Shown here: positions 1,345 to 55,825 of the stretch, one piece after another
How positions within the stretch are numbered: the stretch's first letter is position 1
Layout of the letters: every line of letters begins with the position of its first letter
Assembly: GCA_964607415.1 (NCBI GenBank)
Contig: CAZSKK010000001.1
Span: 333,469-397,468, forward strand
Source: an uncultured Candidatus Saccharibacteria bacterium
Lineage (GTDB): Bacteria; Patescibacteriota; Dojkabacteria; J137
Reading direction: 5' to 3'
DNA length: 64,000 nucleotides
Made by a program: the position numbers and the translations under genes
Notes under the pieces: generated by a model
What the model saw: only the letters and a program-made list of their open reading frames with translations
The model's database searches: none
What the model was told of the DNA's origin: nothing

Positions 1345-2736
1345 TTAGAATTTCTTCTCAAACTTCTTCCTACTCTTTTTTACTCTTTTGTTTTTAGTTT
1401 CAGAAACATTGTTTATTTTACTTTCTATATTTTTACCTACTTTATTTTCAAATTTAAGTCCCAATTTTTCTTGAACTTCTGTGAATTTTAACAAAGCGGC
1501 ATCAAACTTAAACTGAGTTGCTAGTAAACCTAAAATTATCAAAAACACTCCAATTAAAAGTTTATTATCACCGCCTTCAGAAAACAAAGCTGTAGCTGGT
1601 AGTGTACAACCGTTATTTGTGCAGTTTGCGTTATTCAAACACTGCGTCAAAACACATATATTTCTGGATGTGTCACATACATTTCCAACAGGACATGCAC
1701 CATTACTACCGCAAGCACTTCCACAAACGGGATCTACTGCACAGTCTGAATCATTCGGAATGCTAGGATTTCTACAAACTCCGCTGATACATTGCAAACC
1801 ACTTGCACAATTTCCCTGCCCTGTTCCAGTACAAGCTTCATTACAAACTGGGATTCCAGGATCTGGAGTACAATCTGCATCATTTGGTACTGCAGGGTTT
1901 CTACAAACATTATTTATACATTGAAGACCACTTGCACAGTTTCCTTGGCCTGTTCCTGTACATGCTTGATTACATTGAGCAGTAACAACAGGATTGCAAA
2001 CTGGCAATCCACAAGTAATTTGCTCGCCAGAAACTGCATCAACTTTAACTCCACAAAAGCTTCCTGGATTAGACACGCTAATATTACTTCCTTGCATTAT
2101 ATCAATCTGACCACACCTTCCATCTAATGTTGCACTACAACTTCCGTTTTCTGCAAATATTTGAACACCCACATCATCTCCTTGACATCTGTTATCGGTT
2201 CCACAGCCATTTGGGCACAGAAAAATCAAACAACCTCCAGCAGCTCCAGTACCGTTTGGACATTGAAGAGAACCCCCTGTACCAGAACATGCTGAACAAT
2301 CTCCTCCACAGTCTAATCCAGTTTCTCCACAATCTTGAGAACCATTAGAGCAGTGTGCGGTACCAGTACATGAAGACGCTGCATTACCCCCGCAAGCTAC
2401 AATAGCATCGGCGACAACGTTGGGATTGGATGAGTCACCATTATAACATCTATATTGGCCTTCATTTACTGTTCCTGAAGGACAAGGATTACATCCTAAT
2501 GGACCACCAGGTCCATCACATGCGTTAGGCCCACATGCAGTATTGCAACTTGCACCTAGACTTAATGTCGTGCCTGGATAAGGACATTGAATTTGAGCGC
2601 TTGTATCATCTGGCGCTTGATCTTGCTGATTAAGCCTTATAGCAATATAGACAGAAATTCCTGCAAGAACCAATGTCAAAATAATCAGAACAACAATTGT
2701 AATTTTTCTAGATCTTGGCATAAGATAAGAATACAT
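1345..2736 (-). CDS. Membrane-anchored Cys/Gly-rich tandem-repeat surface protein with a C-terminal LPATA + hydrophobic + Lys-rich tail (sortase-substrate-like)
   Basis: 463 aa. The N-terminal TM/signal anchor is ITIVVLIILTLVLAGISVYIAI. About 15% of residues are Cys. There are two ~40-aa repeats, C-N-x-ACTGTGQGNCASGLQCI-x-x-VCRNP-x-x-PND-x-DC. The C-terminus reads CTLPATALFSEGGDNK-LLIGVFLIILGLLATQFKF followed by a K-rich tail. Confidence 0.6.
   Translation of the reverse strand: MYSYLMPRSRKITIVVLIILTLVLAGISVYIAIRLNQQDQAPDDTSAQIQCPYPGTTLSLGASCNTACGPNACDGPGGPLGCNPCPSGTVNEGQYRCYNGDSSNPNVVADAIVACGGNAASSCTGTAHCSNGSQDCGETGLDCGGDCSACSGTGGSLQCPNGTGAAGGCLIFLCPNGCGTDNRCQGDDVGVQIFAENGSCSATLDGRCGQIDIMQGSNISVSNPGSFCGVKVDAVSGEQITCGLPVCNPVVTAQCNQACTGTGQGNCASGLQCINNVCRNPAVPNDADCTPDPGIPVCNEACTGTGQGNCASGLQCISGVCRNPSIPNDSDCAVDPVCGSACGSNGACPVGNVCDTSRNICVLTQCLNNANCTNNGCTLPATALFSEGGDNKLLIGVFLIILGLLATQFKFDAALLKFTEVQEKLGLKFENKVGKNIESKINNVSETKNKRVKKSRKKFEKKF
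1758..2000. repeat. Tandem ~120-bp coding repeat, two copies about 85% identical, inside the Cys-rich protein gene
   Basis: The DNA shows a direct repeat: ccacttgcaca(a/g)tttcc(c/t)tg(c/g)cctgttcc(a/t)gtaca(a/t)gct... These encode the duplicated CN(Q/E)ACTGTGQGNCASGLQCI module. Confidence 0.6.
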
Positions 2737-2924: not shown

Positions 2925-4478
2925 CTATACGCTTTCTCCATCAAGGTATTCCTTGGCTAGTCTTAACAAATCAATCTTCTTATTATAAAGTGGTTCGTCT
3001 ATAACCTTTTCCAAAAGATAATTTAAAACTTTACCTAGAACTGGCCCTTGCTGCAATTCGAAGTTTTCCATTAAATCAGCACCTGTTATGTCTAAATCAG
3101 AAACTTTTAACGCCATGTCTTTTGCTCTTACCGACGCAATCCTTTCAGATAAAATATCGATATCTTTGGGGTCAAATTCGCTTTTGGGGTTTGAAGCTGC
3201 ATCTGCTATTCTTAGTTTCATCAAATCCTCAATTGCATCTTCGCCGCCGACATTTATTATCAATCTTCTTATAGCACCATCAGACCAACCGAACTGAGCC
3301 TTTGGCTCAGGATGACGAATGACGGATGACGAATTACGAGTAGTCTCACCCTGCTCGCTTTGCTCGCCACCCTCTCCATTAAGGAGAACTGAGGGTGAGG
3401 TGGTGGTACTCACGCCTTTGCGCCAGTCTGCAGATGGATAATAAAACATATGCCACCTTACAAGTCTTACTACTCTATCTATTTCAGCGTTAGAAAATTT
3501 AAGCCTTTTCATTATTTCTTTTGTCATTTCAGACCCCATAACATCATGGCCATAAAAGTGAATGCCCTTTTCATCGTCACTTTTGCATCTTGGCTTTGCA
3601 ATGTCGTGAAAAAGGGCTGCTAATTTTACTGAATCTTCAGCTTCATCTACAGCTTTAATTGAATGTGTAAAAACATCATCTGTATGGAATTGCGGCTGAA
3701 CTACTTCAACACCTTCCAAAAGTTCTGGAACAAACAGCTCAAGAATTCCTGAATCTTTTAATAAGTTTAATCCTTTGGAAGGCTTTGGAGATTTTAAAAG
3801 AAGTTTCATCAATTCATCTCTAAACCTTTCAACAGAAACCTGTTTTGTTATATGCAAGGTTTGTTTGATTGCTTCAAAAGTTTTGGTTTCGATTTCAAAA
3901 TCAAGTTGAGATGCAAGTCTACAAGCTCGAACTGATCTTAATCCATCTTCTGAAAATCTTTCGATTGGATCTCTTACTGCTTTAATTACTTTATTCTTTA
4001 AATCAAAAATTCCATTATAAGGATCAATCAGAATTTGTTGTACTGAGACATCTGAATCATCAAAATGTTGCAAGTCCAATGCTATAGAATTGATTGTAAA
4101 ATCTCTTCTTGCGAGATCTTCGTTAATAGTTTTTGTAAATTCTACTTTTGTGGGCCATCTTCCCCCCATGTAATCAGCTTCAGATCTAAACGTTGTAACT
4201 TGTACGTCAAATTTTTCGCCATTTTCATCTTCACCGATAACTGTTATAGTTCCAAACTTTGCTCCAGTTGGAATTGATTTAGGGAAAATCTTAGAAATTT
4301 CATCAGGGTTTGCATCTGTTGCGATATCATAATCTCCTGGTAGCTTTCCAAGCAATATATCTCTAATACTTCCGCCCACCAAATAAGCCTTAAAATTATA
4401 TCTTTGCAGTTCTTCGGCAATGTTTATTACATAGCTTGGAATCAGTTTTTGAAATTGTGGAATAGTTAAGTCGATCAT
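2925..4478 (-). CDS. cca: tRNA nucleotidyltransferase (CCA-adding enzyme / poly(A) polymerase family) with a C-terminal HD domain; contains an in-frame low-complexity insertion
   Basis: Pol-beta head motifs GGSIRDILLGKLPGDYDIAT and RRDFTINSIA are present, as is an HD domain (LAALFHDIAKP, YGHDVMGSE). The segment WRKGVSTTTSPSVLLNGEGGEQSEQGETTRNSSSVIRHPEPKAQ is encoded by a GC-rich repeat. Confidence 0.75.
   Translation of the reverse strand: MIDLTIPQFQKLIPSYVINIAEELQRYNFKAYLVGGSIRDILLGKLPGDYDIATDANPDEISKIFPKSIPTGAKFGTITVIGEDENGEKFDVQVTTFRSEADYMGGRWPTKVEFTKTINEDLARRDFTINSIALDLQHFDDSDVSVQQILIDPYNGIFDLKNKVIKAVRDPIERFSEDGLRSVRACRLASQLDFEIETKTFEAIKQTLHITKQVSVERFRDELMKLLLKSPKPSKGLNLLKDSGILELFVPELLEGVEVVQPQFHTDDVFTHSIKAVDEAEDSVKLAALFHDIAKPRCKSDDEKGIHFYGHDVMGSEMTKEIMKRLKFSNAEIDRVVRLVRWHMFYYPSADWRKGVSTTTSPSVLLNGEGGEQSEQGETTRNSSSVIRHPEPKAQFGWSDGAIRRLIINVGGEDAIEDLMKLRIADAASNPKSEFDPKDIDILSERIASVRAKDMALKVSDLDITGADLMENFELQQGPVLGKVLNYLLEKVIDEPLYNKKIDLLRLAKEYLDGESV
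3301..3420. repeat. GC-rich mosaic repeat element inserted in-frame in cca
   Basis: ggctcaggatgacgaatgacggatgacg...gtctcaccctgctcgctttgctcgccaccctctccattaaggagaactgagggtgaggtgg. It contains the inverted pair CTCACCCT/AGGGTGAG and modules (ccaccctctcc, gagcaaagcgag, gctcaggatgac) shared with elements at 5447, 7509, 16409, 22607 and 51588. Confidence 0.55.
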
Positions 4479-5091: not shown

Positions 5092-5352
5092 AACGCGATT
5101 ATATCATAGAATAGTTATAGTGTTTACGTGTTAACGAGTTAGAGAGCTAACTGATTAGATTATTAAAACTCAAAACAAGAATCTCCTAACTTTGATATAA
5201 TTCAGAATGACATCAGGGGTCAGAGACCTGAAGTTAGTGGCAAGATATCATAAGTAAGAATTTAAAGTTAATTCGTTTTGGTATGCGATTTCTGGATTCT
5301 AAATGTTTAGAATTTCCAATTTAGTATTTCGAATTTATCATTAATTTTTTCT

Positions 5353-6681
5353 ATGTTCATTTGTAGCAACTGTCAAAAAGAATTTTCTAAATGGAGTGGT
5401 CAATGTCCAAACTGTGGACAGTGGAATACACTAAATGAAGTTGATCCTTCGACTACGCTCAGGATGACAAAAACAAAATCGTCCAAAGCTTCCCGAAGCT
5501 CACGGCTCGAAGCTCGTAGCTCTCAGCAGCCAGTTAGACTTATTGATTTAGATAAAAAAGACGAAAAAGTAAGCTACAAACAAATAGAGCTCAAGACTGG
5601 TATCAAGGAATTTGATAATACAATTGGTGGAAGAATAATTTCTGGTCAAGTAATCTTGTTTGCTGGAAGCCCTGGCGTTGGTAAAAGCACTTTATCGTTA
5701 CAGATTACAGAAAGTTTTTCAAATCAAGGTTTAAAGATTCTATACATTGCAGGCGAAGAATCTCCAAGCCAAATAAAACACAGATCTGATCGATTAAAAC
5801 AAAAGCAAACTAATGTACTGTTTTACCCTGAGACAAACATAATCTCCATTCAAAACTATATTGCATCTCATTCAAAAGATATTGATTTAATTGTTGTGGA
5901 TTCAATTCAAACACTTTATTCACCGGATTTACCAAGTACTAGTGGATCCATTTCTCAAATTAGCGAATGCGCCGACAAGATTATAAGCTTAGCAAAAGGT
6001 TTTAGTATTCCTGCATTTATTATTGGTCATATTACAAAATCTGGTGAAATTGCTGGACCAAAAATTTTAGAACACATGGTTGACACAGTTTTATATTTTG
6101 AAGGTGATAAGCGTAGTGAATTAAGAATTCTTAAAGTAGAAAAAAATAGATACGGACCAACTGACGAAGCTGGGATTTTTAAAATGGCTGAAGGAGGCTT
6201 ATCAGAAGTTAAAGATACAAAAGAGCTTTTTGATCCAAGTAAAGAAGATGCTCCTGGATCTGTCTACTGTATGAGTTTAGAAGGTAACAGGCCAATAGTT
6301 GTGGAAGTTCAAGCACTTGCCACAAAAACATATTTTACAAACCCAAGAAGAACTTCTTCAGGTTTTGATTTAAATAGACTTTACATTCTCCTTGCAATTT
6401 TAGATAAAAAACTAAAACTAAAAACTTACGAATATGATGTTTATGTAAATATTACAGGAGGGATCAAAATTGTTGATCCTGGATTGGATTTAGCAGTCAT
6501 TAAAGCAATAGTTTCTTCAATTAAAAACGTAGTTGTCCCAAAAACTGAAGTATATTTTGGTGAAGTAGGTTTAACAGGTGAAGTTAGAAAAGTGATGTTT
6601 GAAGAAAAGCGAACAAAAGAATCTGAGAGAATGGGTTTTAAAAAGATAACTAATTCGAAAAATTTGAAAAGAATTAGTTAG
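5353..6681 (+). CDS. radA: DNA repair protein RadA/Sms
   Basis: N-terminal zinc finger CSNCQ...CPNCGQW, a RecA-like ATPase (GSPGVGKSTLSLQ) and a Lon-like C-terminal domain. An in-frame low-complexity insert (DPSTTLRMTKTKSSKASRSSRLEARSSQQP) is encoded by a GC-rich repeat. Confidence 0.85.
   Translation: MFICSNCQKEFSKWSGQCPNCGQWNTLNEVDPSTTLRMTKTKSSKASRSSRLEARSSQQPVRLIDLDKKDEKVSYKQIELKTGIKEFDNTIGGRIISGQVILFAGSPGVGKSTLSLQITESFSNQGLKILYIAGEESPSQIKHRSDRLKQKQTNVLFYPETNIISIQNYIASHSKDIDLIVVDSIQTLYSPDLPSTSGSISQISECADKIISLAKGFSIPAFIIGHITKSGEIAGPKILEHMVDTVLYFEGDKRSELRILKVEKNRYGPTDEAGIFKMAEGGLSEVKDTKELFDPSKEDAPGSVYCMSLEGNRPIVVEVQALATKTYFTNPRRTSSGFDLNRLYILLAILDKKLKLKTYEYDVYVNITGGIKIVDPGLDLAVIKAIVSSIKNVVVPKTEVYFGEVGLTGEVRKVMFEEKRTKESERMGFKKITNSKNLKRIS
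5447..5535. repeat. GC-rich mosaic repeat element inserted in-frame in radA
   Basis: cgactacgctcaggatgacaaaaac...cccgaagctcacggctcgaagctcgtagctctcagcagcc. Its modules are shared with 2857..2894 (cgaagctcacagctcgaaactcg), 36399..36445 (agctcgaaactcgtagct) and 3301..3420 (gctcaggatgac). Confidence 0.5.
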
Positions 6682-15889: not shown

Positions 15890-16432
15890 ATGTTCGAAAT
15901 TAAAGAAGCAAATAGTGGTGATTTTGAACGTTTAAAACTTCTTATACTTGAGGCACTAAAAGAAGATCCCATCGCCTTTACTGTAACATTCGATGAGTAT
16001 AACCAAGGTAGTAATTCCTGGTGGCATTCTTTTTTAGATCCATACCTTTTACAAGATCATTCTAAATTATATATTGCAAAAAATAAAGATACAATTACTG
16101 GTATGATTGGAGTTCTTTTTTCAAGAAGAAGTAAACAAGAACATATTGCAACAATTGTTTGGTTTTATGTATCAAAAGAGTTCAGAGGAAATAAAGTTGG
16201 AAATGCATTATTTGAAAAATTACTAAATGATATAAGCGATATTAAGCGCATCAAAAAGATAACACTTAATGTAACAGCTACCCAGAAAGAGGCGCAAAAA
16301 ATTTATACAAAATATGGTTTTACTGTAGTTGGTGTTCTTAAAAATGACCTTCGCGAAAATGATACGTATCATGATATCGTTGTTATGGAAAAATATATAC
16401 GAAACCCTCACCCTAATGAGCAAAGCGAGTGA
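15890..16432 (+). CDS. GNAT-family N-acetyltransferase; the last ~8 codons are encoded by a GC-rich repeat
   Basis: FRGNKVGNALFEKLL and YTKYGFTVVG acetyl-CoA-binding motifs. Confidence 0.65.
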   Translation: MFEIKEANSGDFERLKLLILEALKEDPIAFTVTFDEYNQGSNSWWHSFLDPYLLQDHSKLYIAKNKDTITGMIGVLFSRRSKQEHIATIVWFYVSKEFRGNKVGNALFEKLLNDISDIKRIKKITLNVTATQKEAQKIYTKYGFTVVGVLKNDLRENDTYHDIVVMEKYIRNPHPNEQSE

Positions 16433-16475
16433 AGGGAGAGGGTGGCGAACGAACGTGAGCCGGGTGAGGGTGTTA
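16409..16475. repeat. GC-rich mosaic repeat bridging the GNAT stop and the ogg start
   Basis: cctcaccctaatgagcaaagcgagtgaagggagagggtggcgaacgaacgtgagccgggtgagggtg, with CCTCACCC...GGGTGAGG ends. Its modules match the reverse complement of the 3301..3420 element. Confidence 0.55.
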
Positions 16476-19018: not shown

Positions 19019-22000
19019 ATGAGCTTTACTCACTTACATGTTCACACAGAATATTCATTACTCGATGGGGTTTCTAAAACACCAAAGCTTTTTGAAAAAG
19101 TTAAAGAACTTGGCATGGACTCAGTAGCAATGACTGATCATGGTGTGCTTTATGGCGCAGCAGAGTTTTGGAAACTATCAAAAGACTTTGGTATTAATCC
19201 AATAATTGGTTGCGAAATATACGTAGCACCTTTAGAAAGAACACTTAGGCAACCTGTTAACGGGATAAAATACTACCATTTATTACTACTAGCTAAATCT
19301 TTAGAGGGTTATCAAAACCTTGTAAAGATAGTATCCATAGGTCAACTAGAAGGAATGTACTATAAACCCAGAGTAGACAAAGAAACTTTAGCAAAGTATT
19401 CCAAGGGTATAATTTGCACTTCTGCATGTATGGCTGGGCCTCTTTCACGCCATATTTTGCGAGGCGAATTTGATCAGGCTGAGGACTGGCTAAGATTTCT
19501 TAAAGGTACCTATGGAGAGGACTTTTATTTAGAACTACAAAGACATGGATATGACGGTAAAGATGATCTAAACATTAATGAATATCTTGTTAAAAATACT
19601 TCCCAAGAAGATGACTCTTCCGAAGAGTCAATTGACGATTCATCACAGCAAAAATTTGCAAATTTAAAGCTAAGGGAATTTGCAGAGAAATATAAGCTGC
19701 CTGTTGTTGCTACTACTGATGCTCACTATTTAAATAAAGAGGATAAAGAAGTGCAGACTGTTCTTTTTGCCATTAAAGATGGGAAGTTAATTAGCGATGA
19801 CACTTGCAGGAAAGGATATGAAGGAACATATATAATGTCGCCTGAAGAAATGAAACTTAAGTTCTCCGATATACCAGAAGCGGTTGATAATACAATGGTT
19901 ATAGCAGATAAAATTGAACATTTTGGACTTAAGTTTGAAAGAGTTCAACCACGTTTTTGGAATATTCCAAAAGGTTCAACAGCTAAATCTGAATTGAAAA
20001 AGCAAGCCTATATCGGAGCTGTGAAAAAATATACCGAGTATTTGAACTTAAAAGACAAAGGGGATGATGTTTCTGTTTTTGAAAATGCAATAGATAAATT
20101 TTCTCAAAATATGTTCGATGATGCTTCAAAAATATTGACACAAGAGCTAATTGATAGATTGGAATATGAACTAATGGTAATCGATAAAAAAGGTTATAAC
20201 GACTACTTTTTGGTCGTAGGCGACCTGATGCAGTTTGGTAGAAGGAATGGAATTCTAGTTGGAGCAAGAGGATCTGCTGCAGGTTCAGTGATAGCGTATG
20301 TTTTAGATATTACTAATGCTGAACCAATAAAATGGGAATTATACTTCGAAAGATTTTTAAATTTGGAAAGACCATCCCCTCCTGATATAGACATGGATAT
20401 TCAAGATGATAGACGAGATGAAATAATCCAGTATGCCAGAGATAAATACGGTGAAGAATGTGTTGCAGCTATTTGCACTTTCGGAAAATTAAAAACAAAG
20501 GCAGCCATTCGAGATGTTTCAAGAGTATTGGGAATAGATTTAAAAACCGCAGATAAGCTTTCCAAAATGGTAACAGTTTTATTTGGAAAGCCTTTCCCTA
20601 TTTCTAAAATGATGGAAGTTGATAAAGAGTTTGCAGAGATAATAAATAGTGATGAAAATCTTCAAAAAATGTCTAGCATTGTTAAAAAAATTGAAGATTT
20701 GGCAAGACATGTTTCTACCCATGCTGCGGGCTATCTGATTACTCCTGAACCCATAACTAATTATATGGCTTTACAACGTGACGCAAAGGATCCAGAAAAA
20801 ATAATGACCCAAATGGATGGAAATTTTGTGGACAAACTAGACTTCATGAAATTTGATTTTCTTGGGCTGCGAACTTTAACAATCATAAGAAATGCACTAG
20901 AGTACATTGAACAAAGGCATAATAAGAAAATCGATATAACTAGAGTGCCAGAAAATGACCCTGATACTTTTGCACTTTTTTCTAAAGGAGATACGGTAGG
21001 TGTATTTCAATTTGAGTCTCCTCCAATGCAACAATTTTTAAAGGATCTCCAGCCAGAAACCCTTGAAGACATTTGTTTCCTTGCGGCAGCATATCGCCCG
21101 GGCCCTATGAAATATATTCCAGATTACATTTTGTGTAAACATGGCAAAAAAGAACCAGAATATCTAATTCCTGAATTAGAACCTTTACTGAATAAAACCT
21201 ACGGTTTTCCTATTTACCAAGAACAGCTTTTAAAAATTTGCATGGAACTTGCAAACTTTACTCTTGCCGATGGAGATGTTATTCGAAATGCTTTAAAGAA
21301 AAAGCAGTTAGATATACTGAAAGCGAAAGAGCCTGATTTCAAAAAGAATTTTATGGATAAATTTGGTTATTCTCAAGATATTGCAGATAAACTGTGGAAG
21401 CAACTGGAACCATTTTCTGATTACGGATTTAATAAGGCTCACTCTGCAAGCTATGCTGTTGTTGCTTATTGGTGCGCATATTTAAAGGCTCATTACCCTA
21501 TTGAATTTATTACAGCTTTAATTCACTCCGACCTTGAAAATTTAGAAAGAGTTACTGTTGATATTAAAGAAGCAAAAAGAATGGGATTCAAAGTTTCTCC
21601 TCCAGATATAAATTATTCTGAAGTTTACTTTAGGCCTGAAAATGAAGATACTATTCGATTTGGCTTAGGTGCAATTAAAAATGTTGGGTTTAAAGTTTGT
21701 GATGAAATTGTTTCTGAAAGAAATAAGAATGGCTTATTTAAAAGTCTTGCCGATTTTACACAAAGAATGGGAACAAAAAATGCAAATAAACGAGTTCTAG
21801 AAGCTTTAATAAAATCGGGAGCCATGGATGAGTTTGGCGATAGAAATGCGCTTTTACAAGTTATTCCAGAAGCAATAGAAATTGCTGCTGGAAAAGAAAA
21901 AAGTAAATCCTTAGGTCAAACTGATCTTTTTGGGTCAAGTGATAGCTCTGGCGATTCAATTTCAATAAGTATTTTAAATCTTCCTAAAGTTGAACCCGTT

Positions 22001-22606
22001 AGTGAATCTCAATTAATTGAATGGGAAAAGGAATTTATGGGTATTTTTATTTCAACTCATCCACTTGAAAACTATAAATGGATAACGCTTTTGAATGGAT
22101 TTAAAACTATATCTGAGATAGAGGCATTACATTCGGGTGATAATGTAAAATTTATGGGCATCATAAGTGGAATTAAAATTACGGCAACTAAAGCAGCAGG
22201 AGAAAAAATGGCAATTCTAACAATTGAGGACATGTCGGGAAAACATGAAGCAGTTTTGTTTCCTAAAAAATATTCAGAAATACTTTCAAAAAATTTATTA
22301 GTGGAAACGAAGCCAATTATTTTTGCAGGTGTAATTAATGAACGAAATGATAGAAGATCAATCGTAATAAATGAAATGGCGTTTGCAGAAATTGTGGATA
22401 AGCCAAAAACTTTAATACTAGATATTAGGGGTGTTGAAGACCAAAAAAAGCTTTCTAATATTAAACAATGTTTTTCTGACGAAGGTGACGTACAAGTGAA
22501 CATAATCTACGGAACGCAATCTGAGCCCAAAAGCATTACTAGAAAAAGCCATTTGACCGATGAACATTTTGAAATTTTGAGGGAGTTTATAAAGCGTACT
22601 TGGTAG
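19019..22606 (+). CDS. dnaE: DNA polymerase III alpha subunit
   Basis: 1195 aa. PHP domain HLHVHTEYSLLDG, polymerase core, and OB fold near the C-terminus. There is an acidic low-complexity insert, TSQEDDSSEESIDDSS. Confidence 0.9.
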   Translation: MSFTHLHVHTEYSLLDGVSKTPKLFEKVKELGMDSVAMTDHGVLYGAAEFWKLSKDFGINPIIGCEIYVAPLERTLRQPVNGIKYYHLLLLAKSLEGYQNLVKIVSIGQLEGMYYKPRVDKETLAKYSKGIICTSACMAGPLSRHILRGEFDQAEDWLRFLKGTYGEDFYLELQRHGYDGKDDLNINEYLVKNTSQEDDSSEESIDDSSQQKFANLKLREFAEKYKLPVVATTDAHYLNKEDKEVQTVLFAIKDGKLISDDTCRKGYEGTYIMSPEEMKLKFSDIPEAVDNTMVIADKIEHFGLKFERVQPRFWNIPKGSTAKSELKKQAYIGAVKKYTEYLNLKDKGDDVSVFENAIDKFSQNMFDDASKILTQELIDRLEYELMVIDKKGYNDYFLVVGDLMQFGRRNGILVGARGSAAGSVIAYVLDITNAEPIKWELYFERFLNLERPSPPDIDMDIQDDRRDEIIQYARDKYGEECVAAICTFGKLKTKAAIRDVSRVLGIDLKTADKLSKMVTVLFGKPFPISKMMEVDKEFAEIINSDENLQKMSSIVKKIEDLARHVSTHAAGYLITPEPITNYMALQRDAKDPEKIMTQMDGNFVDKLDFMKFDFLGLRTLTIIRNALEYIEQRHNKKIDITRVPENDPDTFALFSKGDTVGVFQFESPPMQQFLKDLQPETLEDICFLAAAYRPGPMKYIPDYILCKHGKKEPEYLIPELEPLLNKTYGFPIYQEQLLKICMELANFTLADGDVIRNALKKKQLDILKAKEPDFKKNFMDKFGYSQDIADKLWKQLEPFSDYGFNKAHSASYAVVAYWCAYLKAHYPIEFITALIHSDLENLERVTVDIKEAKRMGFKVSPPDINYSEVYFRPENEDTIRFGLGAIKNVGFKVCDEIVSERNKNGLFKSLADFTQRMGTKNANKRVLEALIKSGAMDEFGDRNALLQVIPEAIEIAAGKEKSKSLGQTDLFGSSDSSGDSISISILNLPKVEPVSESQLIEWEKEFMGIFISTHPLENYKWITLLNGFKTISEIEALHSGDNVKFMGIISGIKITATKAAGEKMAILTIEDMSGKHEAVLFPKKYSEILSKNLLVETKPIIFAGVINERNDRRSIVINEMAFAEIVDKPKTLILDIRGVEDQKKLSNIKQCFSDEGDVQVNIIYGTQSEPKSITRKSHLTDEHFEILREFIKRTW

Positions 22607-22691
22607 AGCCTCACCCGGCTTCACTTTGTTCAGCCACCCTCTCCAGTTTGGAGAGGGTAGTTTGAGCTTGCTCAAACTGGTGAGGCTACGG
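22607..22691. terminator. GC-rich palindromic element between convergent dnaE and relA-like genes; candidate bidirectional terminator
   Basis: gcctcacccggcttcactttgttcagccaccctctccagtttggagagggtagtttgagcttgctcaaactggtgaggc. It has nested inverted repeats (ccctctcca/tggagaggg, gtttgagc/gctcaaac, cctcacc/ggtgagg). Confidence 0.5.
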
Positions 22692-24167
22692 CTACTCTTC
22701 TCCCATCGCCCTTAAAGTCCTCCTAATCCTTGACTTTGTTTCTGCCATTTTACACTTTGCAAGCCAACCTCGATTTGTGTTTTTATGCTTTGTTGTAATT
22801 ACTTCGCACACATCTCCTGTTTGTAAAACATGATCCAATGTTACAATTTTTTTATTAATATACGCGCCATTACATCTGTCTCCAATTTGCGTATGAACTG
22901 CATAAGCAAAATCTAATGGAGTAGATCCCTTTTCCAAAATTACAACTTTTCCCTTGGGTGTAAAAACAAATACGCTTTCAGAAAATGCTTTAATTTTATA
23001 GGATTTAGTTGCTTCATCGGAGTTATTCTTCCAATCAACAAGTTCTTTGGTCCAAGTAAATGATTCTTTTTTAGAATTCATTTGGAGTTTGTATGCAATA
23101 TGGCTTGCGGGTCCAAATTCATTATATTCATGCATTTCAGCAGTTCTAATTTGAATTTCTGCAACAAAGCCATCAATATCTACTACTGTGTGAATAGATT
23201 TATATCCACTTGCTTTTGGCTTAATTATGTAATCGTCAAATTCTTCAGGGAAGTAGTCCCATTTTCCATGAATCAAACCTAAAACCAAGTAACACTCAGC
23301 CTCTGTATTTAAAATTACTCGAATTCCTAAAAGGTCTTTCAGTTTCTTAATGTGTGTTTCATTTAGAGTCTCGCCTTCATTCATATATTTCTTTTTTATT
23401 TTATTGTAGGTGCTACTATAATTTTTTGTTCTATAAGAAATGCTTACAGGCTTAACATTGTACTTTGATAATAGGTTCAAAATCTCATCCTCAACTTTTT
23501 TAAATATTGATTGGCTTTCCAAGTAAATTTTATCGGTATAAGATTTTATAAAATTATACTCTGTAGGATTTAAGATCTTTAATGCAGTGTTTTCAAATAT
23601 CGATTGAAAATGCCCCAATCCGAGATATTCACAAAGAGGCGCATACACAAGTTTTAATTTATATGCCTGATTCTTTTGAGTTTCGATTGGTAAAATATCA
23701 AGCGAAAAAGAATTATATAGTTTATTTGCAAGTCTGATTATTAAAATTCGAATATCTTCACTTGATGCAATCATAAGTTTTCTAAAGTTATCTGGATCTT
23801 CATTATGAAGTTCAAAACTTTCTGAATGCTCCTTAATCTGACTTAAACCATCAACAATAAATGCAACTTCTGTTCCAAACTTCTTATCTATTTCTTCAAT
23901 TGTTGCATGTTTTAAATCAACAATTTTGTGAAGCAGGCTTGCAATTACAGAAGTTGTGTCTAAATTAAGCTTTACAATATAGCTTGCAACAGTTAGCAAA
24001 TGTGTATCCATTGATTTGCCTGAAAGTCTTTTATCGTTCTTATGAAGTTCTGACGCATAATCAAACGCTTCTTTAATTTTTGAAACGTCGTATTTTATTA
24101 TTGAAGAATTTATTAGTTCTTCAAGTTCAGCAAAAGTTGTAATTTCGTTAAAGGTTAAGGTTTTCAT
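22692..24167 (-). CDS. relA: RelA/SpoT-family (p)ppGpp synthetase with a degenerate HD hydrolase domain and a TGS domain
   Basis: HD-like N-terminal region, but the site reads LLHKIV rather than LLHDV. Synthetase motifs DLLGIRVI and YKSIHTVVD...EIQIRTAEMHEYNEFGPASHIAYK are present. TGS domain: VFVFTPKGKVVILEKGSTPLDFAY. Confidence 0.8.
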   Translation of the reverse strand: MKTLTFNEITTFAELEELINSSIIKYDVSKIKEAFDYASELHKNDKRLSGKSMDTHLLTVASYIVKLNLDTTSVIASLLHKIVDLKHATIEEIDKKFGTEVAFIVDGLSQIKEHSESFELHNEDPDNFRKLMIASSEDIRILIIRLANKLYNSFSLDILPIETQKNQAYKLKLVYAPLCEYLGLGHFQSIFENTALKILNPTEYNFIKSYTDKIYLESQSIFKKVEDEILNLLSKYNVKPVSISYRTKNYSSTYNKIKKKYMNEGETLNETHIKKLKDLLGIRVILNTEAECYLVLGLIHGKWDYFPEEFDDYIIKPKASGYKSIHTVVDIDGFVAEIQIRTAEMHEYNEFGPASHIAYKLQMNSKKESFTWTKELVDWKNNSDEATKSYKIKAFSESVFVFTPKGKVVILEKGSTPLDFAYAVHTQIGDRCNGAYINKKIVTLDHVLQTGDVCEVITTKHKNTNRGWLAKCKMAETKSRIRRTLRAMGEE

Positions 24168-37417: not shown

Positions 37418-37624
37418 ATATAGAGATTAGTGATTAGAGCCAAAGACTAGAGACAAGAGATTAGGTTTTGGATTCAAAAATTACAAAAGTTACAATTAAA
37501 AGAATTTATTTTTCCAGATGCATTACTTTAACGATAATCTTTGAAATTTTTCTCTAATTGTAAATTGATAATTTAATTTATATTATTTGCCTATTTTGGT
37601 GTCTGTTTTTGGCTCTCTATATAC
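37418..37624. repeat. Intergenic segment bounded by ~18-bp inverted repeats (TATATAGAGAGCCAAAAA-like)
   Basis: Left end: tatatagaga[ttagtgatta]gagccaaag. Right end: tttttggctctctatata. The left copy carries a 10-nt internal duplication. Confidence 0.35.
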
Positions 37625-45417: not shown

Positions 45418-45476
45418 GTTTGAGCTATCGGATGTCTGCTTTCAGCTATCTGAGAGCTGATGGCTGATAGCTGCTT
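45418..45476. repeat. Palindromic intergenic repeat (family R2), copy b, between the permease stop and the ATPase start
   Basis: gagctatcggatgtctgctttcagctatctgagagctgatggctgatagctgc. It shares an identical 12-mer and 16-mer with 4481..4563. Confidence 0.5.
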
Positions 45477-49565: not shown

Positions 49566-49757
49566 ATAAACTTAATGTTAACATCTAAAATTTCCGAATT
49601 TTAGCACCCTGTATTATATGTAGCAAGAAAATCTTAAATACTGATTTAATATTAAAATTGTATACATTGACTTGAAAACTCATTGAGCTGTAAGATGTTT
49701 AGTAGCGTTAGACGTTAGAAGTTTGACGTAGGACGAAGAACAAGCATTAGCTTGCTG

Positions 49758-49907: not shown

Positions 49908-51587
49908 GTGGCAAAAAAACGTAGACGAAAAAAGAAAACTAACTATTTTAGATATATAATTCTAATAGCATTAACTATTGGTGTTTATTTTGGCTATTCT
50001 AAATACATGGAATCAAAAGCTTTTGCAGATTTTCCATCTTCTTTAACAACGAAATCAAATTCTACTCACTGGTGGAATGATAACTACGCTTATAGAAGAG
50101 AAATTAATTCGACAAATCAAAATAGTTTAAAATATTTTGTATTAAATCATGGAGAGCTAGTAATTAATTCAAAATCAAACGAAGATGGATCAGATTTAAT
50201 TCTTGTTTCTCAAGATAATTCAAATAAGTCAACAGAACTTCCATTTGAAATCAGGAATATTGATGAAATTAATGTTGAAATAGGATTTGATTCTTCAAGC
50301 TTAATATCTCAAAAAGTCTTTTTGTATTACGGAAATAAAATGCCTGAGAAAAATAATGTATTAGGCACTTTTTCTATACTGGACAATGCAGAAGAAGTTT
50401 CAATCGGCATTGAGGAATCACCTGTTGTTACAATAATACCTTCACATTCGTGGGTTTTAAAAGAAAATTCCGGTACCAAACTAGACTTAATGCTTAATTA
50501 CGATCAATCAATAGGAAACTACTTCGAAGCTTCTTATGTTATAGATCAAAACGAACCTGTAAAAGTGAAATCGTCAGGTAAAAACCTGGAAGTAAATCTT
50601 TCGAATATAGCTATTGGCAAGCACAGTCTTTTCTTGCTCATTAAAGATAAGGATACAAAATATAGAACAAACACCATTGATATTATCATTTCTGCTCCAG
50701 TTTATGTTGCCTGGACACTTGATTGGGAAGGAATTGATCCAACCCCTGAAAACCTTGCGGACCTGGAGAAAGTTGCTAATGAACACAAAATACCATTAAT
50801 ACATTACTTTAATCCTCGTGTTCTTATTCACACCGCAATTACAAAACAAAGAAAGCAAGATATTGTAAACTGGTTGAAAAAAAGAATTCAAAATGGGGAC
50901 GAATTTGGCATGCATATGCATATGCATCATGACATGGTTGAATTTGCAGGAATAAAACCCAGAGAAACTGCTCCTACTTGGGATGGTGGCACAAAAGGAT
51001 ACGATACACCAACCAGTGAGTATCCATATGCTGAATTTTTAAAACTTGTAAACTGGGCAAAAAGCATGTTCAGTCAATACAACCTGCCTGCACCCGTAGG
51101 CTATAGAGCTGGCGGTTGGTTTGCGGACACAGATACTCTTAAAGCTTTGGAAGATGCTGGCTTTAAATACGACAGTTCTGGTAGAAAACCTTTTGCACTA
51201 GGATCAACTGGTATTCAACAAGCGTGGACTTTAGATATAACAACACAACCTTATTATCCGTCTTACACCAATCAGAATAATCAGGGTGCAACCGATCCTA
51301 TGAAACTTCTTGAAATTCCAAACAACGGAATGGATTCTTATTGGTCCGAAACTCAACAGTTAATAGATAACTTTTATGCAAACTATGTCCCTGGAACCTT
51401 TTTAAATGAAGATATTGTGATTGTGTATTTGACCCATCCGGAATGGTTTAATTCTGTAGATAAGCCTAAGGTTAAACAACTATTTAACGAATTAGATAAA
51501 TACTCCTACGAAAAGAATAAAGGACCGGTGAAGTATGTGACGCTTGAGAACTACATGAAAGAATCCGTAAGATTGAACGAAAAATAG
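49908..51587 (+). CDS. Hypothetical N-terminally anchored exported protein; possible divergent polysaccharide deacetylase (CE4)-like C-terminal domain
   Basis: N-terminal TM YIILIALTIGVYFGY. The C-terminal domain has WTLDWEG (compare the NodB TFDDG motif), a His cluster HMHMHMHHD and YRAGGW. Confidence 0.3.
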   Translation: MAKKRRRKKKTNYFRYIILIALTIGVYFGYSKYMESKAFADFPSSLTTKSNSTHWWNDNYAYRREINSTNQNSLKYFVLNHGELVINSKSNEDGSDLILVSQDNSNKSTELPFEIRNIDEINVEIGFDSSSLISQKVFLYYGNKMPEKNNVLGTFSILDNAEEVSIGIEESPVVTIIPSHSWVLKENSGTKLDLMLNYDQSIGNYFEASYVIDQNEPVKVKSSGKNLEVNLSNIAIGKHSLFLLIKDKDTKYRTNTIDIIISAPVYVAWTLDWEGIDPTPENLADLEKVANEHKIPLIHYFNPRVLIHTAITKQRKQDIVNWLKKRIQNGDEFGMHMHMHHDMVEFAGIKPRETAPTWDGGTKGYDTPTSEYPYAEFLKLVNWAKSMFSQYNLPAPVGYRAGGWFADTDTLKALEDAGFKYDSSGRKPFALGSTGIQQAWTLDITTQPYYPSYTNQNNQGATDPMKLLEIPNNGMDSYWSETQQLIDNFYANYVPGTFLNEDIVIVYLTHPEWFNSVDKPKVKQLFNELDKYSYEKNKGPVKYVTLENYMKESVRLNEK

Positions 51588-51665
51588 CCTCACCCAATTC
51601 CGACTAATCGGAATTTCCCTCTCCATCTGGAGAGGGCGGCGAAGCCGGGTGAGACTATTTAGTAT
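51588..51665. terminator. GC-rich palindromic element between convergent genes (49908 gene and asnS); bidirectional terminator candidate
   Basis: gcctcacccaattccgactaatcggaatttccctctccatctggagagggcggcgaagccgggtgag. It has nested inverted repeats (ctcaccc/gggtgag, aattccga/tcggaatt, ccctctcca/tggagaggg). Confidence 0.5.
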
Positions 51666-52958
51666 TTATGGTCTTGTTAAAACTGTCGTTCTTGGGAACG
51701 CAATAGTCTCTCTAATATGGTGAACTCCACTTACCCACCTAACCATTCTTTCTAGTCCTAAACCAAAGCCACTGTGAACCACAGACCCATACTTTCTAAT
51801 GTTTAAGTACCACTCATAATCTGATACTGGATAGTTTCTCGCTTTCAGTTCCGCAAGCAGTTTGTCATAATCTTCTTCTCTTTGGCTCCCACCAATAATT
51901 TCTCGAGCTTCTTCTGGAGCAATTAAGTCCGCATTTCTTGCTCTAACCATTCCTTTATCATCTGTATATTTTTTCATGTAAAATGCTTTAACAGCAAATG
52001 GATAATCTTCAATAAATACTGGAACTCCAAAGTGATTTCCTATTTCGATTTCCTCCTCTGTGGTCATGTCGTCGTTATAATCAACCTTAAATCCTTTTTC
52101 TTCCATTAGCTTTTTAGCATCATAATGCTTCATTCTAACAAAAGGAGTGTTTACTGTTTTTTCCAGTACAGTTGTATCTCTTTCCAAAATTTCTAATTCA
52201 ACTTTACAGTTTTCAATACAATCTTTAAGAATCCTTTTTACCATTGCTTCTTGAACATCTTCATTCATTGATTGATCATGAAATGCCATTTCAGCATCCA
52301 TCATCCAAAATTCCGATAAATGATTTCTGGTCTTACTTTTTTCTGCTCTAAAAACGGGGCCAAAATCGTAAACTTTTCCAAAACTCATAATCGCAGCCTC
52401 ACTATAAAGCTGACCTGATTGAGTTAAATACATTTGATCTTCATAGTACTTTAGTGAAAATAGTTGAGTTGTATCCTCACAACTTGTTGGTTGCAAAATT
52501 GGAGTATCAAATCTAATAAAACCTTGCTCGTGATAAAAGTTTGTAATAGATCTAAAAACCTGATCTCTGATTCTTAAAACAGCCCAAGGAGTTTTTGATC
52601 TTAAATACAAATCCCTGTTTTCAAATAAAAATTCTGGCCCATGTTCTTTTTTACCAATTGGGAAATCTTCTGATTTTCCAATAAGTTTAACTTCTGAAAC
52701 TTGAATTTCATATTCTTCTTTTTTAGGATGTTTAGAGATTGTGCCATTAATTTCAACTGATGATTCTAAACCTAGTTCTTCAGCATACTTCCAAGTCTCT
52801 TCTGAAACTTTATCTTTTTCTACAACCGCTTGAATAAATCCTGACCCATCACGTAACTGCAAGAATGCTATTTTCCCAGAGGATCTTTTATTGTACATCC
52901 AGCCTTTAAAGATGATTGATCTATCTACGAACTCTTTTGCTTTTGAAATTGTGAACAT
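51666..52958 (-). CDS. asnS: Asparaginyl-tRNA synthetase
   Basis: 430 aa, class IIb. Motif 2 is FRAEKSKTRNHLSEFWMMDAEMAF (EFWM is AsnRS-like). Motif 3 is GGSQREEDYDKL...YGSVVHSGFGLGLERMV...AFPRT (GSVxHSGFG and the FPRT end are AsnRS-like). Confidence 0.75.
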   Translation of the reverse strand: MFTISKAKEFVDRSIIFKGWMYNKRSSGKIAFLQLRDGSGFIQAVVEKDKVSEETWKYAEELGLESSVEINGTISKHPKKEEYEIQVSEVKLIGKSEDFPIGKKEHGPEFLFENRDLYLRSKTPWAVLRIRDQVFRSITNFYHEQGFIRFDTPILQPTSCEDTTQLFSLKYYEDQMYLTQSGQLYSEAAIMSFGKVYDFGPVFRAEKSKTRNHLSEFWMMDAEMAFHDQSMNEDVQEAMVKRILKDCIENCKVELEILERDTTVLEKTVNTPFVRMKHYDAKKLMEEKGFKVDYNDDMTTEEEIEIGNHFGVPVFIEDYPFAVKAFYMKKYTDDKGMVRARNADLIAPEEAREIIGGSQREEDYDKLLAELKARNYPVSDYEWYLNIRKYGSVVHSGFGLGLERMVRWVSGVHHIRETIAFPRTTVLTRP

Positions 52959-53207
52959 ATATTTTAAGATATAAGTAATAAGTTATGAGTAACTAGTTTT
53001 ATTTTTAGCTAATAGCTTATAGCTAATAGTTAAACCATTTACTTCCCCTGAGAATGCATATTATGCATTCGAATGTAGCTAACTTAGCTCCACTCAACAG
53101 CACAATGTGCTGTTTCGGGATGAGGTATAAGATAAATAAGCTGTTAAAACTTTCTGCTCAGCTAGGATTCCCTTCGACAGGCTCAGGGTAAACTCCAAAG
53201 TAATAAT

Positions 53208-55713: not shown

Positions 55714-55825
55714 TTGTTAATTAGTCTCAGGTTAATTAGTAAAATACGAATTAACTTTTTTACTAGTTAACCAATTAACCTATGCAATATAAACTCAAAA
55801 CCCTTAACCCGTTAACTCTTAAACT
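55714..55825. promoter_or_regulatory. Conserved AT-rich operator-like motif, copy 2
   Basis: tttgttaattagtctcaggttaattagtaaaatacgaattaacttttttactagttaaccaattaacc...cccgttaactc, upstream of the gene at 55832. Confidence 0.45.

Follow-up and report, generated by a model that had tools for sequence, protein, structure and literature searches.

A probable decayed BoxC-type palindromic repeat in frame within the CCA-adding enzyme gene of a Candidatus Dojkabacteria bacterium

The stretch of DNA analyzed here (64 kb, 33% GC; hereafter the window) originates from a member of Candidatus Dojkabacteria, within the candidate phyla radiation (CPR/Patescibacteria). On its minus strand, an open reading frame (ORF) at 2925..4478 (cca) encodes a 517-aa class II CCA-adding enzyme with an HD domain, and within this frame lies a GC-rich palindromic repeat. 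Above the Pfam cut-offs, the protein matched PolyA_pol (residues 31-165), PolyA_pol_RNAbd (193-253), HD (279-350), and tRNA_NucTran2_2 (458-506), i.e., the PolyA_pol head, RNA-binding, and tail domains by which class II CCA-adding enzymes are recognized; among named homologues, the closest belong to Candidatus Dojkabacteria. CCA-adding enzymes in the PDB aligned to residues 18-268 (E=1e-49), and since the PDB sequence matches end at residue 268-333, the insert cannot be placed on a solved structure. When 23 orthologues from Dojkabacteria were aligned, the C-terminal half of the enzyme was found to contain only one large length-variable region, situated between the invariant motifs YYPSADWR and GW(S/T)D. 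In the window protein, this hypervariable loop spans aa 354-396, between YYPSADWRK and GWSD (3291..3419, minus strand; alignment A1), which roughly coincides with a block (3301-3420) that a preliminary description of the window had regarded as a GC-rich repeat inserted in frame. Among the best 120 homologues (Dojkabacteria orthologues), 107 had a loop that could be delimited; its length ranged from 10 to 52 aa, with modes at 11 and 31 aa and the shortest loops being 10-11 aa long. A peptide of the element type occurred, among these 107, only in the window protein and in one relative with 90% identity (P0002); the alignment of orthologues, which had been suggested as a check, thus identified the segment as an insertion. 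The structure predicted by AlphaFold2 from alignment A1 had a mean predicted local distance difference test score (pLDDT) of 80.7, with residues 356-394 at a pLDDT of ∼32, devoid of secondary structure, and flanked by confident helices on either side. From this model, the loop, which is located C-terminal to the HD domain, is predicted to be disordered; it is a surface loop and tolerates changes in length.

The coding strand of the loop region reads W R K G V S T T [T S P S V L L N G E G G E Q S E Q G E T] T R N S S S V I R H P E P K A Q F G W, where the 20 bracketed residues (aa 360-379, TSPSVLLNGEGGEQSEQGET) correspond to the palindromic element (copy A; 3342..3401, minus strand); the loop as a whole includes the peptide NGEGGEQSEQGETTR. 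The residues NSSSVIRH are approximately those encoded by a 7-nt tandem array (ATGACGA x4, or period 14 x2.1; 3310..3339, detected with TRF), which is separate from the palindrome and absent in the sister lineage, and GVSTT and PEPKAQF are ordinary loop residues belonging to neither. The 120-nt block is, therefore, a composite to which the palindrome contributes 60 nt. The preliminary description had correctly read the peptide GVSTTTSPSVLLNGEGGEQSEQGETTRNSSSVIRHPEP from an open frame and had correctly recognized a GC-rich repeat with inverted ends within cca: exact inverted 8-mers, CTCACCCT (3345..3352) and AGGGTGAG (3392..3399), are present inside the ORF, and GC content is 53-60% at the flagged block versus 33% in the window. 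Its extents, however, had been drawn too wide. A repeat is present, yet only 60 of the 120 bp are palindrome, and although the low-complexity segment of ∼40 aa is indeed a tolerated loop, only 20 residues derive from the palindrome, the remainder being native loop and heptamer array.

The element consists of CCTCACCC, a first spacer (or hairpin), CCCTCTCC, a loop of 3-5 nt, GGAGAGGG, a second spacer (or hairpin), and GGGTGAGG; it is 60-85 nt long and GC-rich. GGGTGAGG is the mirror of GGAGAGGG, so that 7-8 of 8 purine-motif triplets are satisfied in every window copy. The terminal inverted repeats comprise 8-12 nt, (TAG)CCTCACCC / GGGTGAGG(CTA), with copies C and D, like the copy of a related strain (L173), having the longer form TAGCCTCACCC/GGGTGAGGCTA. 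CCTCACCC and CCCTCTCC each occur six times in the window, both strands considered, where 0.4-0.5 occurrences are expected. When an element was defined as a pair of the two end words, each with no more than one mismatch and separated by 25-120 nt, exactly four were found (3344-3400, 16406-16469, 22609-22685, and 51588-51654), compared with 0.025 in shuffled sequence. A profile hidden Markov model (HMM) was trained without the cca copy, on copies B, C, and D together with those of the related strain L173 and of a Nomurabacteria locus (L122); searching with nhmmer, this profile matched almost the entire cca copy (E=4.8e-7), and beyond the known copies it found nothing in the whole window better than E ∼1. 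Copy A shares with copy B a 14-mer and a 12-mer that are exactly identical, GGAGAGGGTGGCGA and GAGCAAAGCGAG. That modules of the block recur at 16409, 22607, and 51588, as claimed in the preliminary description, is thereby confirmed, except that the copy starting at 16406 is not purely intergenic. This copy (B; 16406..16469, plus strand; profile E=1.7e-12) has lost the left arm of its central hairpin and is partly read through by a GNAT ORF (15890..16432), the end of which now takes up the first 27 nt of the copy. Copy C (22607..22688) is intact and forms the whole spacer between the convergent ORFs 19019..22606 and 22692..24167, and copy D (51585..51657), also intact, occupies the spacer between a DUF2334 gene (49908..51587) and the convergent asnS (51666..52958), being followed on the asnS side by CTATTTTT. 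The second loop is 10 nt long in D, 21 nt in C, and 18 nt in both B and A. Folded as RNA or DNA, copies C and D form an outer stem closing three hairpins (C, z=-6.0 for RNA and -7.9 for DNA; D, z=-6.6 and -7.0). Folding, which had also been put forward as a check, thus succeeded for these two copies (z between -6.0 and -7.9) but not for the one in cca: copies A and B, both of which lack the left arm of the central hairpin, together gave z between -1.2 and -3.0, barely better than shuffled sequence, and copy A by itself -1.2 to -1.8. The cca copy is a decayed relic which has lost most of its pairing.

A less decayed version of the same insertion is present in the sister lineage, from which the 90%-identical protein derives. 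In the corresponding DNA (L001-L003, from three sequencing runs), the element is found at the same codon position, after GGCGTRGGTACCACC, but is 66 nt long and has a perfect central hairpin (CCCTCTCC TTCA GGAGAGGG). Since the element is located at the same site in the window strain and in its sister, the insertion is older than their separation; orthologues with 73% identity or less lack it. Nucleotide identity between window and sister is 55.5% in the loop and 83.8% in the rest of the gene, which indicates relaxed constraint with the frame preserved. In the frame used, the 60-nt element is free of stop codons and encodes a peptide rich in Ser, Pro, Gly, and Glu.

Comparison of close relatives at the other loci revealed further states of the element. 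At locus D, the arrangement of the window is identical in three independent assemblies (L180-L182), whereas in two relatives from two samples (L173 and L179; asparaginyl-tRNA synthetase [AsnRS] 95% identical) the interior of the element is inverted between unchanged flanks: 49 of 52 positions are identical in inverted, but only 31 of 52 in direct, orientation (the element of L173 is located at 2365-2438). Each orientation is, thus, found in independent assemblies. In two other relatives (L170 and L174), only CCTCACCCAAGGAGAG remains of the element, followed by ∼150 nt of unrelated sequence, and L173 and L174 have identical AsnRS despite the element being flipped in one and replaced in the other. 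Relatives with an 81%-identical AsnRS (L171 and L172) contain no element; instead, an ordinary bidirectional terminator (AAAAAATGCCCGAAAGGGCATTTTT) is present, and the downstream gene is a different one. Rearrangement between close strains is, thus, observed at locus D among strains with 81-100% identical AsnRS and matches the reports from E. coli, albeit for a single locus and with no control set. At locus B, GNAT orthologues end with VMEKYI followed by the stop codon, and in one relative (L176) the element lies after this stop (2040-2060). In the window, the stop codon has changed from TGA to CGA, and the ORF gains ten codons (RNPHPNEQSE), nine of which are inside copy B, before ending at a TGA within the element (16400-16432). 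Apart from the repeat, one 81%-identity relative (L171, 8643-11302) has two class II aminoacyl-tRNA synthetase genes side by side (436 and 433 aa), both with tRNA_anti-codon plus tRNA-synt_2 as their Pfam domains, where the window strain has a single one.

Public collections were scanned with the pattern CCTCACCC N10-40 GGAGAGGG N5-30 GGGTGAG. It was found in 42 stretches of IMG/VR, mostly with 56-74% GC, and in at least 120 stretches of GTDB species genomes. The taxa named here are a sample from the GTDB matches listed, among which the copies of the source genome itself did not appear; the matches listed included Cyanobacteria, Chloroflexota, Acidobacteriota, Bacteroidota, Alpha-, Beta-, and Gammaproteobacteria, Planctomycetota, and Verrucomicrobiota, furthermore Bipolaricaulota, Armatimonadota, Nitrospirota, Elusimicrobia, and Omnitrophota, and, from the CPR, Nomurabacteria, Saccharibacteria, and the "Patescibacteria group". 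Relatives of the element were fetched by the pattern (162 loci) and contained 131 distinct full elements, the spacers of which were bimodal in length (2-9 or 12-31 nt). Long spacers folded better than their shuffled counterparts (mean of -6.06 versus -2.69 kcal/mol). The right half of copy A is identical at 30 of 33 positions to an element in a Terriglobia genome, and the mini-hairpin of copy D, GGCGAAGCC, recurs as GGCCGAAGGCC in several contigs of 56-63% GC. Core and spacer modules are, therefore, common to many phyla of differing GC content, and the element is not confined to one lineage.

Fetched loci where the element is spanned by a long ORF were screened for in-frame copies, the Pfam domains on both sides being checked. 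One such copy is located in MurG of a Patescibacteria metagenome-assembled genome (JAQTSG010000013.1; L142, 6224-7432), between the G-loop and the remaining N-terminal domain. Others were found in a Type ISP restriction-modification enzyme of Prolixibacteraceae (L069, 2007-5570), in a Type I HsdR of Limisphaerales, which contains two (L105, 5193-8000), in a PMT_2 glycosyltransferase of Chloroflexota (L064, 2252-3832), in the linker of a Ser/Thr kinase-TPR protein of Verrucomicrobia (L132, 441-2843), in a metallophosphoesterase of Omnitrophota (L134, 1681-2469), and in a MuF-like viral protein of 2002 aa (L010, 6566-12571). The peptides encoded by in-frame copies in other phyla include, for example, TSPPTPLPPLPNPLLIRRGNEKGEV. 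Given these copies, the cca case represents an outcome which this element family has reached repeatedly. In-frame fusions have been recorded for Rickettsia palindromic elements (RPEs) and for ERIC, BOX, and RUP elements (reviews PMC10969869 and PMC3184786); in the literature searched, those of BoxC-type elements, or in CPR, were not described, which is no proof of novelty. As a separate observation, a coding sequence for DUF559 (a Vsr-like endonuclease) was present in 5 of the 162 element loci (L069 4647-4991, L105 6249-6596, L108 70-402, L169 4-126, and L161 1405-1701), in four of them within 350 nt of the element, and in L069 the C-terminal domain of the Type ISP enzyme contains the DUF559 domain and the element as a joint insertion. 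DUF559, which adjoins the element in this enzyme, was considered as a mobilizing gene, but the idea was dropped, 5 of 162 loci being too weak a basis.

Short repeats of another kind are also present in the window. Degenerate tandem arrays with a period of 7 (or 14) nt, such as the one in the cca loop, are enriched (20 TRF rows versus 1-7 in each of ten shuffles). They are located at 2910-2933, 3310-3339, 5306-5337, 5494-5522, 37421-37464, 45450-45473, 49706-49729, 52965-53033, and 55799-55822 and are mostly intergenic; besides the one in the cca loop, one is in frame in a radA-like ORF (5353..6681), in the linker after the zinc ribbon (..SKASRSSRLEARSSQQP..). A 22-mer, GAAGCTCACRGCTCGAARCTCG, is common, at 20 of 22 positions, to the spacer downstream of cca (2863-2884) and the radA-like coding sequence (5495-5516), with none expected by chance, and is, thus, a second GC-rich repeat with an in-frame copy. 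In the sister strain, the spacer downstream of cca (L001, 3515-3767) contains different heptamer runs. The gene neighboring cca (1345-2736, minus strand) encodes a Cys/Gly-rich protein of 463 aa with an N-terminal membrane anchor; it contains an internal tandem duplication of 129 nt (1730-1845 / 1859-1974; 77% identical), and no Pfam domain was listed for the protein in the precomputed table for locus L004.

Taken together, these findings suggest that 3342-3401 is what decay has left of a GC-rich repeat with nested palindromes, of the BoxC/PIT/intrastrand triplex class, which was inserted or copied into the cca loop; to this reading, a probability of roughly 0.8 is assigned. The ancestor shared by the window strain and its sister lineage acquired it in a length-tolerant, disordered loop of the enzyme. 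As far as can be judged from sequence, the insert would be translated and kept in the protein, where it is probably harmless and adds no function. Survival may reflect a filter, such that only insertions which are free of stop codons, comprise a multiple of three nucleotides, and hit tolerant loops would persist. The intact intergenic copies might, at the DNA level, be hot spots of local rearrangement, via a cruciform or a triplex, and may double as 3'-end hairpins between convergent genes. Spreading would proceed by some copying or recombination route, including transfer between phyla, and probably does not involve a dedicated transposase encoded by the element. Several observations weigh against parts of this reading. 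Neither a transposase nor a target-site duplication was found in the window, the ORFs of which were not systematically screened for transposases, so that "mobile" is deduced only from copy number and distribution. No empty site was recovered from a very close relative, and insertion is concluded from the absence of the element at 73% identity or less, in a loop which is variable already. The second loop, at 10-21 nt, is longer than that of any experimentally characterized triplex motif. A terminator scan called neither C nor D (in C, only a minor 5-bp hairpin was reported); because such a scan misses multi-branched elements, a role of the intact copies in termination can still only be conjectured.

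[quoted passage not shown] Its terminal inverted repeats of 8-12 nt and its dispersed copies would agree with this, as would the in-frame fusions, which are typical of RPE, ERIC, BOX, and RUP elements. However, no direct repeat that could represent a target-site duplication is shared by the seven copies inspected (the four of the window and those of L001, L122, and L173), core and spacer modules are spread over many phyla, at differing GC contents, and the E. coli motif is not associated with transposons, phages, or plasmids (Holder et al, 2015), which renders such an origin unlikely. About equally improbable is that the copies are functional structured RNAs or terminators akin to the Whalefall-1 RNA, the one in cca being an mRNA structure which tunes translation or stability. 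In support of this, C and D exactly fill the spacers of convergent genes, CTATTTTT comes after D toward asnS, an ordinary bidirectional terminator takes this very spot in the 81%-identity relative, long spacers retain hairpin potential in differing sequences, and the Whalefall-1 model (RF01762) yielded sub-threshold scores for D (22.2 bits), C (19.9 bits), and the cca copy of the sister strain (17.5 bits). None of these, though, reaches the gathering score of 37, the window's own cca copy did not match at all and has a near-random folding energy, the terminator scan was negative as detailed above, and the E. coli elements show neither promoter nor terminator activity (Maher's group, as cited in PMC4666352). 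Furthermore, both orientations occur on equal terms at locus D, and a DNA palindrome, therefore, fits better than a strand-specific RNA.

That a native low-complexity linker arose at this site and came to look like the repeats through chance or composition is very hard to maintain. Loop length is hypervariable, and the heptamer array and the flanks do not derive from the element, as a native linker would have it; this does not explain, however, why a profile of the other copies matches the segment with E=4.8e-7, why it shares exact 14- and 12-mers with copy B, why its GC content is 58-60% in a genome of 33% GC, or why it is absent in all but one of the other 106 homologues. A misassembly, as can be caused by palindromes, or a sequencing artefact at this GC-rich site has a practically negligible probability: the 517-aa protein was found unchanged on at least eight contigs drawn from several runs, which speaks against an assembly artefact, the DNA is likewise identical in at least seven independent contigs of different SRA runs, and the diverged sister version was recovered from three runs. 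The insertion of a BoxC-type repeat into cca is, thus, the preferred explanation. A far wider proposal goes beyond this locus and is put forward only tentatively, as it would by our estimate sooner fail than hold: BoxC-type palindromes might constitute one horizontally spreading, pan-bacterial family, with core and spacer words constant between 33 and 74% GC, which flips in place between its terminal repeats and repeatedly comes to lie in frame in genes (cca and murG of CPR, restriction enzymes, and kinases), i.e., an RPE-like process across the bacterial domain. The constancy of words and spacer modules across phyla raises the question of the mode of spread.

Little mobile DNA is usually attributed to CPR genomes. 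In such bacteria, a repeat by which gene ends and loops are remodeled is relevant to the origin of lineage-specific insertions in reduced proteomes, and the copies described here constitute a natural series of repeat fates, namely intact, flipped, replaced, decayed, and translated. With the cca copy, the range of BoxC/triplex repeats, which in E. coli are described as strictly intergenic, now includes a CPR bacterium with a minimal genome and the interior of an essential gene.

The BoxC/PIT elements of E. coli were reportedly also treated by Bachellier in the 1990s and by Hoyne & Maher in 2000. They correspond to the intrastrand triplex motif TMECO, CCCTCNCCC N3-6 GGGNGAGGG N3 GGGNGAGGG (Holder et al, 2015; PMC4666352), related G/C-rich motifs being abundant in Microcystis, Anabaena, and Nostoc. 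According to the same study, the motif is intergenic without exception in E. coli K-12 and is tied to local genomic instability. A K-12 example, CCCTCTCCC-TGT-GGGAGAGGG-CCG-GGGTGAGGG, was found with a consensus composed from the fetched elements. The window element has its core blocks CCCTCTCC, GGAGAGGG, and GGGTGAGG in the same order, the third mirroring the second, and the words of the K-12 example are the same. A C-rich block, its G-rich complement, and a mirrored G-rich block (G.G:C, A.A:T, and T.A:T triplets) are present in all copies with 7-8 of 8 positions satisfied. Both elements are GC-rich, dispersed in similar copies in either orientation (four in 64 kb in the window), often arranged as inverted pairs, and linked to local rearrangement between close strains. 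They differ in that the blocks of the window element comprise 8 rather than 9 nt, in that the second loop comprises 10-21 nt and is usually a small hairpin rather than 3 nt, in the host, which is a CPR bacterium with 33% GC, and in location, copy A being coding and copy B overlapping the end of an ORF where the E. coli elements are intergenic. The strict TMECO pattern was matched 34 times in the 162 related loci but nowhere in the window, and the second loops also exceed the limits of ITxF (stems of 6-15 nt, both loops of 1-6 nt). Given the 8-nt blocks and the long, hairpin-bearing second loop, the window copies are variants of TMECO.

Whalefall-1 (Rfam RF01762; Weinberg et al, 2010; PMC2864571) entered the literature as a non-coding RNA found solely in whale-fall metagenomes. 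Its consensus, a CUCUCC hairpin followed by a variable hairpin and GGGUGAGG, equals the right half of the element (window 22635-22687 and 51586-51638), but scores of 16-22 bits fall short of the gathering score, and the window motif is half of a DNA palindrome present on both strands; at the gathering thresholds of Rfam, the window contained one tRNA only. The Whalefall-1 "sRNA" family may, thus, be a sample of BoxC-type repeats rather than a dedicated non-coding RNA. To REP/BIME, ERIC, BOX, and RUP elements, the window element has no sequence relation, but it resembles them in being a mosaic of palindromic modules and in both extending the 3' end of an ORF (copy B) and being fused internally (copy A). 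The comparison with RPEs (Ogata et al, 2000; Claverie & Ogata), drawn in the preliminary description, is sound as an analogy of outcome. In both cases, housekeeping genes of a small, AT-rich genome contain the element in frame, the reading frame of a conserved gene is kept, the extra surface peptide is tolerated, and copies are intergenic as well as intragenic. RPEs, however, are about 100-150 bp long, form ten families specific to Rickettsia, and encode a conserved peptide, whereas the window element is 60-85 nt long and GC-rich, has a pan-bacterial core with BoxC words, and resides in a CPR host, by which it is set apart from RPEs as they have been described and placed in the BoxC/PIT/triplex class instead. 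The element is a known type of repeat, and the cca copy is a new example of it in CPR and inside an essential gene.

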